Assembly (NCBI GenBank): GCA_027064305.1
Contig: JAMOPY010000021.1
Coordinates: 1 to 48,182, forward strand
Source: Methanobacteriota archaeon
GTDB lineage: Archaea; JAADCQ01; Methanopyri; Methanopyrales; Methanopyraceae
Direction of reading: 5' to 3'
Length of the DNA stretch: 48,182 bases
The position numbers were made by a program, and so were the translations under genes. Numbering within the stretch: the stretch's first letter is position 1; each line of letters starts with the position of its first letter. Shown one piece after another: positions 45,424 through 47,499 of the stretch. The notes beneath the pieces are model-generated. The model had not been told where the DNA came from. It did no database searches and saw only the letters and a list, made by a program, of their open reading frames with translations.

Positions 45424-46227
45424 CTACCGCTTGCCGAACAGTCCTTTGATGATCTTGGAGAGGACGCCCTCCTTGTCCGGGACCTCCACCTCGTACTCGA
45501 TACCCAGGAGCTCCGCGGCCAGTTTCTTGAACGCCTGGGCGGCCGCGGACTTGGGACTGCGGACGACCACGGGCTCACCGAACGCGGCGGCGCGGCGCAC
45601 CTCGGGGTCCTCCGGGATCTCGGCCAGCACTCGGGTCTCCAGGATCTTCTCAATCTCGTCCTTGGTGAGCTCGGTCTTGTCCTTGGTCACCCGGTTCACG
45701 GCGGCCCCGGTGATGTTCGTGCCCACGCGCTCGGCCACGGCCTTGACCTTCAGCGCGTCGGTGATGGAGGCGATCTCTGGGTTCACGACCAGCAGGCACT
45801 CGGTCGCGGCGGAGAGGGCCGTCAGCGCGTCGCGGCCCAGTCCGGCGGGACCGTCGATGAGGAGGAAGTCGGCCCGGTCCACGATCCACTCGACCACCTC
45901 GCGCAGGCGCTCCGGGTTGGCCTTGCGGATGCCCTCGAGCGAGATGCCGGCCGGGATGACCTTCACGCCCTTGGGCCCTTCGTACACGGCCTCTTCCACG
46001 TCCGCCTCGCCGGCCAGCACGTCGTGCAGGGTGACGGGAGCGTCCTCCATCTGGAGGATCAGACCGAGGTTGGCCATGGCGATGTCCGCGTCCAGGATGT
46101 AGACCTCGCCGTTCATGTCCGCGAGGGCGGTTCCCAGGTTGGCGGTCACGGTGGTCTTACCGGTACCGCCCTTACCCGAGGCGATGCAGATGGCCCTACA
46201 CCCGTCTCCTCCTTCGGACTCCGCCAA
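45424..46227 (-). CDS. minD: MinD family ATPase
   Basis: [10 protein letters not shown] deviant Walker [23 protein letters not shown]-terminal amphipathic [13 protein letters not shown]. Confidence 0.92.
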
Positions 46228-46232
46228 GCTCG

Positions 46233-47108
46233 CTACCCCTCATTCGGGGACTCGGCCTTGGATTTGGAGGATTCCGTGGTGTGTCCGATGAGGAATTCTA
46301 GCTTAGACATTAGAGACTTAGCGATTCTCTCGCATTTTTCGTCGACTTCTTCGGGGTCCGATTCGACGACGAACGCGATTAAGACGTCTTTATAGGGTTT
46401 TACCGCCAGGGTTTTCCCGGACTTGGTTCCGAGCTTCACCCACTCCAAATGAACCTCCATGTAGTCATCCAGGAGGTCGATGAGCCGGCTGATCTCGGCG
46501 GCGGCGCGGTCCGGCTCCCGGATGCCCTGGGAGTCCACCACGAGGCCCTGCCGGTCAGCGATCACGTACGGGACCTCGGTCTCCTCCTCGACCGGCGAGG
46601 GGACCTTGGCGGACTCCACGACCATGCTGAGGTCGCTGCGGAGCATGAACACGTCGGCGTCCGAGGGGGTGGTCTTGGTCTCGCAGATCGCCACGCTGCC
46701 GTTTACTTTGACGGCCAGGTAGTTCGAACCCTCCTCGGAGGACACGATGATCGTGTCGGCGTCCCGCGCCGTCTCGAACACCCGCTTGATCGCGTTGATG
46801 AGCTCGTGGTCGAAGGATCCGTCGCCCGACATTCCGATGGGCTTGCCTTGCTCGTCGATTACCGCCATCCACTCGAACCCGAAGTACTCGCGGAGCTCGT
46901 CCAGCGCCTTGGACATGTCCTTCCTGGCGGTTTCGACGAGCTTCTCCGGCTCCAGCTGCTTGGAGGCGATCTGCAGGGCCCGCTGGATCGCCTCCTCCCG
47001 GGCCTCCCTCGCGTACTCATCCTCGGGCTCCTCTACCCGCTCCTCCTCACCTCCCCTTTTGAACAGCCGCTTGAACTTGCCCACGATGCGGGCCACGGTC
47101 CTCAGCAC
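46233..47108 (-). CDS. Protein with N-terminal amphipathic helix and two putative roadblock/longin-like domains
   Basis: [18 protein letters not shown]; two segments with roadblock-like pattern ([29 protein letters not shown]); GGAGGT upstream. Confidence 0.6.
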
Positions 47109-47151
47109 CCTAAGACCTCCTGCGAGGGCTTTGGTGGGGGGAGGGGAACGG

Positions 47152-47499
47152 TTATAGCTGCTTGGCGATCTCCTCGGCCGCCTCCTGGGCCCGTAAGCGG
47201 ATTAATCCCAGGTTGGCGTCCGGGTCGGTGATGAGGACCAGCGTCGCCTCCTCGCTGACCGCGATGATCATCACCTTGCCCTCGGTGGACTCGATCAGCA
47301 TCTGCTCCAGGTCGCCCAGGTCCATCTCGTCCACGACTCGCTCGCCCGATCCGTACACCGTGGTGGCGATGGCACCGACCACCTCGGAGTCGATGTCCGG
47401 CGGCACGGCCTCCGCGATAATCAGACCGTCGCTGGAGACGACCAGGGACCCGTGCACCCCGTCCACGCGGTTCAGGTCGGCCAGCACCTTCTCGATCAA
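47152..47499 (-). CDS. Roadblock/LC7 (MglB-like) protein
   Basis: GVHGSLVVSSDGLII, GAIA, LGDLEQMLIE..GKV, ANLGLIR; start TTG 47499 or 47538. Confidence 0.92.
   Translation of the reverse strand: MIEKVLADLNRVDGVHGSLVVSSDGLIIAEAVPPDIDSEVVGAIATTVYGSGERVVDEMDLGDLEQMLIESTEGKVMIIAVSEEATLVLITDPDANLGLIRLRAQEAAEEIAKQL

Follow-up and report, generated by a model that had tools for sequence, protein, structure and literature searches.

Which proteins fix the position of MinD in archaea? Archaeal MinD acts without MinC and MinE and, according to the available text of the Dip preprint (PMC13228585), is not known to have any activator or landmark. The question is raised by a locus near one end of a 48,182-nucleotide stretch of DNA from a Methanobacteriota archaeon (contig JAMOPY010000021.1 of assembly GCA_027064305.1; the whole stretch is called the window below). 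Here a minD gene directly follows two others, one encoding a Roadblock/LC7 protein and one a protein with a predicted membrane helix and two predicted roadblock domains. We read the three genes as a MinD-centred spatial-positioning module with roadblock-fold partners, and put the probability of this reading at roughly 0.5.

The window is contig C21 of a 1.21-Mb genome from the Methanopyrus lineage, which is 89% complete and has a guanine-cytosine (GC) content of about 69%. As an earlier inspection of the DNA alone (the sequence-only reading) had noted, it carries three tightly spaced, co-oriented open reading frames (ORFs). These lie on the minus strand, separated by intervals of 43 and 5 nucleotides, with the following features:

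47152..47538, minus strand: Roadblock/LC7 protein, 128 amino acids (aa) as listed, with a PF03259 match; the single such gene in the genome
46233..47108, minus strand: membrane-helix tandem-roadblock protein (the middle protein), 291 aa; predicted fold, no family match over cut-off
47061..47105, minus strand: basic amphipathic N-terminal helix of the middle protein (residues 2-16), presumed to be membrane-targeting, from the structure model and the hydrophobic moment
46599..46934, minus strand: first roadblock-fold domain of the middle protein (residues 59-170), from superposition of the structure model
46269..46598, minus strand: second roadblock-fold domain of the middle protein (residues 171-280), from superposition of the structure model
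45424..46227, minus strand: archaeal MinD ATPase, 267 aa, over the TIGR01969 cut-off
46153..46182, minus strand: deviant Walker A motif of MinD (residues 16-25, KGGxGKT type with signature lysine), from the alignment of orthologues
45427..45474, minus strand: C-terminal amphipathic tail of MinD (about residues 252-267), presumed to be a membrane-targeting helix, from the translation and the hydrophobic moment

The trio is a tight operon and is conserved through the Methanopyrus lineage. The order membrane protein gene, Roadblock, middle protein, MinD, PUA-domain gene is kept in all six genomes of the lineage, although one of the loci begins at Roadblock.

Judged by its sequence, MinD appears to be a complete membrane-type deviant-Walker-A ATPase. 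It matches TIGR01969 from end to end (model positions 1-251 of 251) with 403.1 bits against a cut-off of 201.75, and is the only one of the 12 ParA-like matches in the genome to exceed that cut-off. The named residues of the deviant Walker A motif, G18-K19-G20-G21-x-G23-K24-T25, are invariant in 28 MinD orthologues; among these aligned sequences, identity outside the Methanopyrus lineage is 44-60%. The C-terminal tail is basic and hydrophobic, has a consensus that is conserved in the orthologues, and is moderately amphipathic (moment 0.54, 86th percentile). Both the identity of MinD and the lack of minC and minE had been proposed beforehand and both stand: in the 89%-complete genome there is no match to MinE (PF03776) at E<=0.01 and none to MinC_C.

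The middle protein has no match over the Pfam or NCBIfam cut-offs, including that of PF03259. The sole hint is to LAMTOR5 (E 0.003, residues 174-211), and a profile search of the PDB gives nothing meaningful (best E 0.095). Structure prediction of 46233-47108, one of the checks suggested by the sequence-only reading, assigns the roadblock fold to both of its domains. The AlphaFold2 (AF2) model, made with 8 homologues, has a mean predicted local distance difference test (pLDDT) score of 68.5, rising to 70-87 in the domains, and a predicted template modelling (pTM) score of 0.43. It consists of an N-terminal helix (residues 2-16, at low pLDDT) and two alpha-beta-beta-alpha-beta-beta-beta-alpha units. 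Residues 59-170 and 169-280 of this model, which is of moderate confidence, each superpose on solved roadblock proteins using VIA-align (Z 12.0-12.8, root mean square deviation (rmsd) 2.3-3.0 Å, 100-111 residues aligned). The partners of both domains are MglB, LAMTOR2/3, the C-terminal domains of Rag proteins and Asgard Roadblocks. For example, domain 1 matches MglB 6izw_C (Z 12.8, 2.8 Å, 108 aligned) and 3kye_A (Z 12.0, 2.6 Å, 107 aligned), while domain 2 matches the Asgard Roadblock 9jue_B (Z 12.3, 2.6 Å, 103 aligned), LAMTOR2 5x6u_B (Z 12.2, 3.0 Å, 109 aligned) and MglB 3t1r_A (Z 12.2, 2.4 Å, 104 aligned). In a Foldseek search with the model, multi-longin/roadblock guanine nucleotide exchange factors (GEFs) such as Mon1-Ccz1 rank first, and hhalign pairs domain 2 with the Roadblock alignment at 70% probability (E 4e-5). 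Amphipathicity within the protein peaks at the N-terminus, which is basic and has a moment of 0.9 (98.8-98.9th percentile of the 11-residue windows in the three operon proteins), and I8 and F12 of the helix are invariant in the 8 homologues. On this model the middle protein is a tandem roadblock with a basic amphipathic N-terminal helix, the architecture that had been read from its translation.

Two other identities for the middle protein were considered and rejected. It is not a divergent PATAN/DUF2226 protein (hhalign gives 0.1-2.3% probability, and the DUF2226 genes sit elsewhere in these genomes), nor is it a MinE analogue by fold, the predicted fold being that of a roadblock. The Methanopyrus genomes contain one or two DUF2226 genes each (112-294 bits), away from MinD. 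One of these, in the genome of the window (L113:3781-4641, or G000:C44:11283-12089), adjoins ORFs that we read by eye as a mevalonate kinase and a Mur-ligase-like protein.

By sequence, the middle protein seems to be restricted to the Methanopyrus lineage. A word-indexed search of 5.8 billion proteins found seven clusters of homologues, every one Methanopyrus-like (42-97% identity), and an exhaustive profile search, made against 1.84 billion representatives, gave three clear clusters and two marginal matches. Among whole genomes it is present in 6/6 of the genus and in 0/35 other sampled archaea. It also evolves much faster than both of its operon partners: compared with distant Methanopyrus species (L005-L007), the window proteins are 82-87% (Roadblock), 81-85% (MinD) and 41-44% (middle protein) identical.

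A related arrangement exists outside the lineage. We defined a family, here called c3 (we found no published name), by three features: a membrane helix at the N-terminus, either amphipathic or transmembrane (TM); a roadblock fold; and a gene that immediately precedes minD in the same orientation. In a set of 80 loci with MinD orthologues (44-97% identical) taken from named archaeal records, with flanks of about 5 kb whose ORFs were classed using purpose-built hidden Markov models (HMMs), c3 lies directly upstream of MinD in 26: 20 Iainarchaeia-type loci, five Archaeoglobi-type loci and one more. The protein is about 154 aa long (173-209 aa in the Archaeoglobi-type loci), and its N-terminus is an amphipathic helix in the Iainarchaeia type and a TM helix in the Archaeoglobi type and others. 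c3 is a real roadblock. Its AF2 model (pLDDT 77.1) superposes on 3kye_B (Z 13.0, rmsd 3.2 Å, 108 aligned) and also on LAMTOR2, MglB and Asgard Roadblocks, and hhalign pairs it with the Roadblock alignment at 90.9% probability (E 1.2e-6).

The middle protein has all three of the features that define c3: it carries the N-terminal helix, presumed to be membrane-targeting, and the predicted roadblock fold, and its gene comes immediately before minD. In position and in structure it corresponds to c3, and the two are likely to be homologous. The sequence link is weak: hhalign aligns the middle protein with c3 at 49% probability (E 1.7e-4) over 104 columns that cover the whole first domain, and the middle-protein HMM matches the c3-like protein of locus L107 (E 1.5e-5 among 3156 ORFs).

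The survey of synteny across archaea, also suggested by the sequence-only reading, extended the association well beyond the six Methanopyrus genomes. A roadblock-type gene is present in the flanks of 44/80 MinD loci (18 Pfam-type, 26 c3-type and three middle-type, which overlap), and in 33/80 such a gene is co-oriented with MinD and no more than 800 bp away. A PATAN/DUF2226-N-like gene occurs in 40/80 loci and a small TM protein in 32/80. The Pfam-type loci comprise three of Methanopyrus type, ten from Methanobacteriaceae and five others (Theionarchaea, Methanofastidiosia, a 'Thermococci' metagenome-assembled genome (MAG) and a Methanosarcinales MAG), in which MinD is followed by a small TM/coiled-coil protein and this by Roadblock. 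In the ten Methanobacteriaceae loci a divergent Roadblock lies about 3 kb upstream, followed by DUF1611, SepF, DUF2226 and MinD. Richer arrangements exist: locus L109 reads c3 .. MinD, c2 (a small TM protein described below), Roadblock, PATAN, and locus L107 reads TM-roadblock, a Cys-rich protein (V4R-like by eye), Roadblock, Roadblock, MinD. As roadblock-type genes keep company with MinD in several orders of archaea that are unrelated to one another, MinD and roadblock-fold proteins are likely to be functionally connected.

Two proteins that recur in these loci can be mentioned here. Cluster c2 (about 60-77 aa) has one TM helix followed by a coiled-coil helix, and its gene directly follows MinD in 32/80 loci (for example L055:5764-5976, L068:989-1180 and L109:1893-2075). 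It gives a weak match to DUF5798 (E 0.003) and may be the equivalent of HVO_0596, which is encoded after minD2 in Haloferax; no copy is present within the Methanopyrus operon. The SepF of the Methanobacteriaceae (L063:2887-3246 and nine further loci; PF04472, 29.3 bits against a cut-off of 27) lies with DUF1611 between Roadblock and the DUF2226-MinD pair, and may point to a connection with cell division among these archaea.

In an independent sample of 201 genomes over archaeal families we compared the positions of matches to PF03259, to TIGR01969, to the c3 profile and to an MglA-like GTPase profile; the PF03259 and TIGR01969 counts in this sample are lower bounds. Roadblock lies within 4 kb of MinD in at least 19 genomes of seven families (the six Methanopyrus genomes and 13 others). 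With the c3 profile there are 33 matches, spread over 31 genomes. At least 15 of these, from 13 families, are co-oriented with MinD and at most 650 bp from it, including 13 of the 14 matches of 56 bits or more. Three further matches, all in family f24, are divergent and 4.3-4.4 kb from MinD, and 15 weaker ones, among the matches listed, are near no MinD. GTPases were scored with the one MglA-like profile at a strict E<=1e-15, and the survey is confined to that family. On this basis 14 of the 15 genomes with a MinD-adjacent c3 have no MglA-like GTPase, and 13 of the 15 have no Pfam Roadblock (among the matches listed). Within the scope of this survey MinD is then the only nucleoside triphosphatase (NTPase) at hand in those genomes. 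Of all these components the membrane-anchored roadblock has the tightest and most exclusive link to MinD; the canonical Roadblock is linked to MinD and to the GTPase alike.

The canonical Roadblock of the operon, the 128-aa protein, matches PF03259 (Robl_LC7) with 71.8 bits against a cut-off of 23 (E 3.9e-20, model positions 2-91 of 91), and is the one PF03259 match in the genome of the window. Its orthologues begin about 12 codons later, so that the listed start is uncertain; this fits the end coordinate of 47499 given by the sequence-only reading. That reading had called the protein an MglB-like roadblock. The assignment to Roadblock/LC7 is sound; the MglB equivalog NF052242 scores 19.5 bits, far under its cut-off of 200. 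In a PDB profile search the closest solved relatives are the Asgard Roadblocks 7f8m and 7yh1 (E 8e-20); LAMTOR2 is among the matches (E 2.6e-6), and MglB reaches no better than E 2e-4.

The 128-aa Roadblock belongs to one orthologous group, with 40-52% identity across other archaea: 46-52% to the Methanobacteriales copies near MinD and 41-45% to the f24/f36 (Methanococci-type) copies. In a tree of 47 Roadblock sequences the MinD-adjacent and GTPase-adjacent members do not form separate clades, and the context has switched at least two to three times in one family. Because the context changed repeatedly within one family, orthology cannot assign the partner of this Roadblock. A second, closely similar paralogue (115 aa) is found in one Methanopyrus genome (L112:3486-3833, or G002:C1:1342988-1343257), far from both MinD and the GTPase; spurious high-GC ORFs obscure its neighbours.

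We propose the following mechanism. The middle protein would sit on the membrane by its N-terminal helix and form a pseudo-dimeric roadblock platform, as MglB dimers or the membrane-anchored Ragulator do for small GTPases. This platform would directly partner MinD-ATP and fix its location on the membrane, either by holding it in place or by stimulating the hydrolysis of ATP and the release of MinD. The tandem roadblock would be the Methanopyrus counterpart, duplicated in tandem, of the c3 single roadblocks found beside MinD elsewhere. The 128-aa Roadblock would be an MglB-type subunit that probably stacks on the tandem roadblock, as in MglB-MglC or in the Rag C-terminal domains with LAMTOR2/3, both known roadblock heteromers, and in doing so may couple the MinD module to an unlinked MglA-like GTPase. 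Possible cargoes are polar archaella or pili, or the division site. We read the operon as a MinD positioning module with the tandem roadblock as direct partner because the membrane-anchored roadblock is the type most exclusively tied to MinD. More widely, by guilt by association, MinD, the membrane-anchored roadblock (c3 or tandem), the canonical Roadblock, PATAN/DUF2226 and the MglA-like GTPase may belong to one pathway of which different lineages keep different subsets adjacent.

A number of observations weigh against this reading. The inter-domain packing in the AF2 model of the middle protein is uncertain (pTM 0.43). The middle protein and c3 are only weakly linked by sequence, and the c3 profile detects 0/6 Methanopyrus genomes at E<=1e-6. 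In 27/80 MinD loci (Methanococci, Hydrothermarchaeota, some Archaeoglobi and a few others), nine of which have less than 2 kb on one side, the flanks contain no gene of the roadblock type and no PATAN gene, and 20 genomes of the 201 carry both Roadblock and MinD with no linkage between them (among the matches listed). The remaining points concern a small GTPase. The sequence-only reading had stated that no small GTPase is present; this holds for the contig of the window, where there is no match to a Ras, Roc or MglA-like GTPase, but not for the genome, which encodes an MglA-like GTPase of 167 aa at 28330-28827 of contig C1 (Arf E 7e-14; 239 bits to our own GTPase profile). Orthologues of the 128-aa Roadblock directly follow such a GTPase in G028, G093, G134 and G174, which are all four of the f24 (Methanococci-type) genomes with the GTPase. 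In the 201-genome sample a Pfam Roadblock is found, among the matches listed, in 48/49 genomes with the GTPase compared with 16/152 without it. Finally, in locus L108 (1636-4978, genome G030) a single operon unites Roadblock, a PATAN-like gene, two Cys-rich proteins, an MglA-like GTPase and MinD. This is the sole case seen with both NTPases; its GTPase is intact but has no canonical start codon in the ORF call. Because L108 has both NTPases with Roadblock in one operon, linkage cannot tell who binds whom. The partner of the 128-aa Roadblock is no less likely to be a GTPase than to be MinD.

These last points lead to the strongest alternative: that the two roadblock proteins form the GTPase-activating protein (GAP)/GEF platform of the unlinked MglA-like GTPase, as MglB does for MglA, and that MinD is merely co-expressed in the same polarity pathway and is neither bound nor regulated by them. 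The regulation of small GTPases by roadblock dimers (MglB, Ragulator) is well established, and the fold matches described above are to proteins of this kind. Nevertheless, c3 roadblocks adjoin MinD in the 14 genomes in which no MglA-like GTPase was detected. Within Methanopyrus the GTPase has orthologues in four of the five other genomes and is near Roadblock in none of the six, the two genes being hundreds of kb apart in G001 and G002, while G003 (99% complete) retains the operon with no detected orthologue of the GTPase. In family f12, Roadblock is found in 3/6 genomes (among the matches listed) yet the GTPase in 0/6, and in one of the family's genomes, G039, Roadblock is inside the MinD operon. 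Methanobacteriales-type genomes, moreover, have a distinct Roadblock paralogue (26-28% identical) beside a KaiC-GTPase fusion, among KaiC-like genes, whereas the orthologue of the window type stays near MinD. Taking both sides together, we regard a platform that serves the GTPase in place of MinD as possible, if somewhat improbable.

Two observations on the GTPase itself stand apart from this comparison. In family f36, genome G072 has a Roadblock orthologue after a GTPase gene (L142:2964-3514) that is split over two reading frames; the genome is a single contig of about 1.6 Mb, and a frameshift, a sequencing error or recoding are all possible. On contig C1 of the window's genome the MglA-like GTPase is followed by a 304-aa protein with no Pfam match (L018:1999-2913), which might be that GTPase's own partner.

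A bolder form of the MinD-centred reading is that the roadblock-fold proteins are the long-sought archaeal partners of MinD and do the job of MinE with a fold known elsewhere for the regulation of small GTPases: on binding the dimer of MinD-ATP, the membrane-tethered platform would set off hydrolysis or release. The sequence-only reading had suggested that roadblock heteromers act as a MinD activator or polar landmark; such activation is conjectural, and we consider this stronger form distinctly doubtful.

Another alternative is that the roadblock proteins are cargo adaptors, not regulators, linking MinD to a type-IV-pilus-like machine (archaellum or pili) and leaving its ATPase cycle unchanged. 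Makarova et al. 2016 (PMC4858521), in the text available, list the Roadblock arCOG02603, with MinD/FleN (arCOG00589), in archaeal type IV pilus loci, and remark that MinD/FleN frequently shares its operons with 'unrelated intracellular or membrane proteins'. In the available parts of PMC13228585 and PMC11588486, MinD4 and MinD2 of Haloferax position motility and chemotaxis machinery; according to the former, the Haloferax MinDs studied so far serve motility, not division. The second Roadblock paralogue among KaiC-like genes in Methanobacteriales-type genomes would also fit an adaptor. However, no pilus, archaellum or chemotaxis gene lies beside the operon in the window or beside MinD in the loci inspected, and the membrane anchor of c3 together with its immediate adjacency to MinD fits a dedicated partner better than a cargo link. 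An adaptor role is quite unlikely.

That the gene order is simply historical, the three proteins acting in unrelated processes, is very unlikely: conservation inside one genus is weak evidence, an LSm-like gene stays by MinD in 15/80 loci with no evident functional tie, and the 20 genomes with unlinked Roadblock and MinD also favour it, but linkage recurs in at least five gene arrangements or orientations across orders and for two different roadblock families, and chance would, by our own estimate, account for about 1-2% of genomes (1-4 Roadblocks per approximately 1.5 Mb and a 10-kb neighbourhood) against the 18/80 loci observed for the Pfam type alone.

The genes on either side of the operon in the window are:

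47577..48182, plus strand: membrane protein gene, cut by the window end; an ORF divergent from the operon
44756-45406: PUA-domain gene (TIGR03684), converging, downstream of MinD

The divergent membrane protein matches no Pfam or NCBIfam family, and the listed starts of its gene and of Roadblock are 38 nucleotides apart. It holds its position in all five Methanopyrus loci that reach that far (32-100% identity, 32-37% in the distant species). It is a conserved neighbour, and nothing ties it to the MinD module. Just beyond MinD, on the minus strand, are ribosomal protein L37e (44430-44618) and LSm (about 44639-44870), both read from translations with no family search. The LSm-like gene mentioned above (cluster c6, likewise read from translation; for example L082:5837-6058) follows MinD in those 15 loci, an adjacency that looks like old synteny rather than a functional tie; since this neighbour has no evident functional tie, old synteny does persist at MinD. 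Two genes from MinD, at 43481-44416 (minus strand), lies a gene that combines a Toprim domain (E 4.2e-10) with an acidic coiled coil of great length, in a place that is conserved in Methanopyrus-type loci. A cluster (c13) that grouped this protein with MinD-adjacent proteins of Archaeoglobi was set aside, the likeness looking like one of coiled-coil composition only; we draw no claim from it.

The operon resembles several known systems in part. One is MglA-MglB(-MglC) of Myxococcus and Thermus, in which a roadblock-fold dimer regulates a P-loop NTPase that sets polarity, and in which a second paralogue, MglC, binds MglB. Both domains of the middle protein match the MglB fold (Z 12-12.8), and orthologues of the 128-aa Roadblock adjoin an MglA-like GTPase in Methanococci-type genomes. 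Here, in contrast, the NTPase of the operon is a SIMIBI-class MinD ATPase and not a Ras-like GTPase, the GTPase being unlinked; the 128-aa Roadblock is far under the MglB equivalog cut-off, and the other roadblock protein joins two domains in one chain and adds a membrane helix. The bacterial MinCDE system shares a MinD with a C-terminal amphipathic helix (in the archaeal protein only presumed to bind the membrane), a tight operon, and a partner with an N-terminal amphipathic membrane helix (MinE there, the middle protein here). It differs in that neither MinE nor MinC was found in this genome and the candidate partner has a roadblock fold; oscillation and a link to FtsZ are without support here. 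Ragulator (LAMTOR1-5) and the Rag GTPases are alike in architecture only: stacks of membrane-anchored roadblock heterodimers hold an NTPase at the membrane, and LAMTOR2 is among the best fold matches of the middle protein (Z 12.2) and also turns up when the small Roadblock is searched by sequence (E 2.6e-6). Ragulator, however, is eukaryotic, serves Rag GTPases that have their own roadblock domains, and is anchored by a separate lipidated subunit.

A similar arrangement in archaea, of which we found no published account, is the cluster of PATAN/DUF2226, roadblock-like protein and MinD in DPANN (Iainarchaeia), where a roadblock with a membrane helix is directly upstream of an orthologous MinD (the 20 Iainarchaeia-type loci above). 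That cluster has a single roadblock domain preceded by a PATAN-like gene, whereas Methanopyrus has a tandem roadblock and a canonical Roadblock, with DUF2226 elsewhere in the genome and an MglA-like GTPase present. PomXYZ of Myxococcus, in the available parts of PMC13170346 and PMC7993993, similarly encodes one ParA/MinD-type ATPase with two dedicated partners that are not MinE, but PomX and PomY are not roadblock proteins and the system works on the nucleoid, not the membrane.

Searches of the literature on MinD, on MglB/ParA in archaea, on DUF2226 and on DUF4388 found no description of an archaeal MinD-roadblock module, and no paper on DUF2226 was found. The top matches in the ESM Atlas are an Asgard Roadblock cluster (0.88) and an Iainarchaeota cluster (0.87), both below 0.9 and to be taken as leads only. 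The text available of Li, Burroughs and Aravind (bioRxiv 10.64898/2026.10.19.760177) states that ParA domains of one clade, 'PriB1', replace MglA beside MglB, and places FlhG in PriB2. This is the only remark we found in print of a ParA-clade NTPase standing in for the small GTPase by MglB-like proteins; archaeal MinD, a membrane-anchored roadblock and a tandem protein are not mentioned in that text. The DipABC system of the Dip preprint (PMC13228585, from the part available) is unrelated to the genes of the operon. The one MinD neighbour to have been tested in Haloferax according to the accessible text of PMC11588486, the small gene HVO_0596, gave no phenotype. The operon is a lineage-specific form (a membrane-tethered tandem roadblock plus a canonical Roadblock, with no adjacent PATAN) of a wider and apparently unpublished archaeal association of MinD with roadblocks.

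The operon and its relatives in other orders name small soluble proteins as the best candidates for partners of archaeal MinD, and these candidates belong to a fold class that has so far been tied to small GTPases. If the proposed reading is true, a SIMIBI ATPase would be under roadblock control and the MinD-type and MglA-type switches would be coupled in one polarity system. On the bolder form, in which roadblocks do the job of MinE, the Methanopyrus operon would also wire the MinD cycle to the MglA-like GTPase through the small Roadblock, roadblock platforms would regulate both classes of P-loop switch (TRAFAC GTPases and SIMIBI ATPases), and an archaeal membrane-anchored roadblock scaffold that holds an NTPase at the membrane would predate the Ragulator-type arrangement of eukaryotes.

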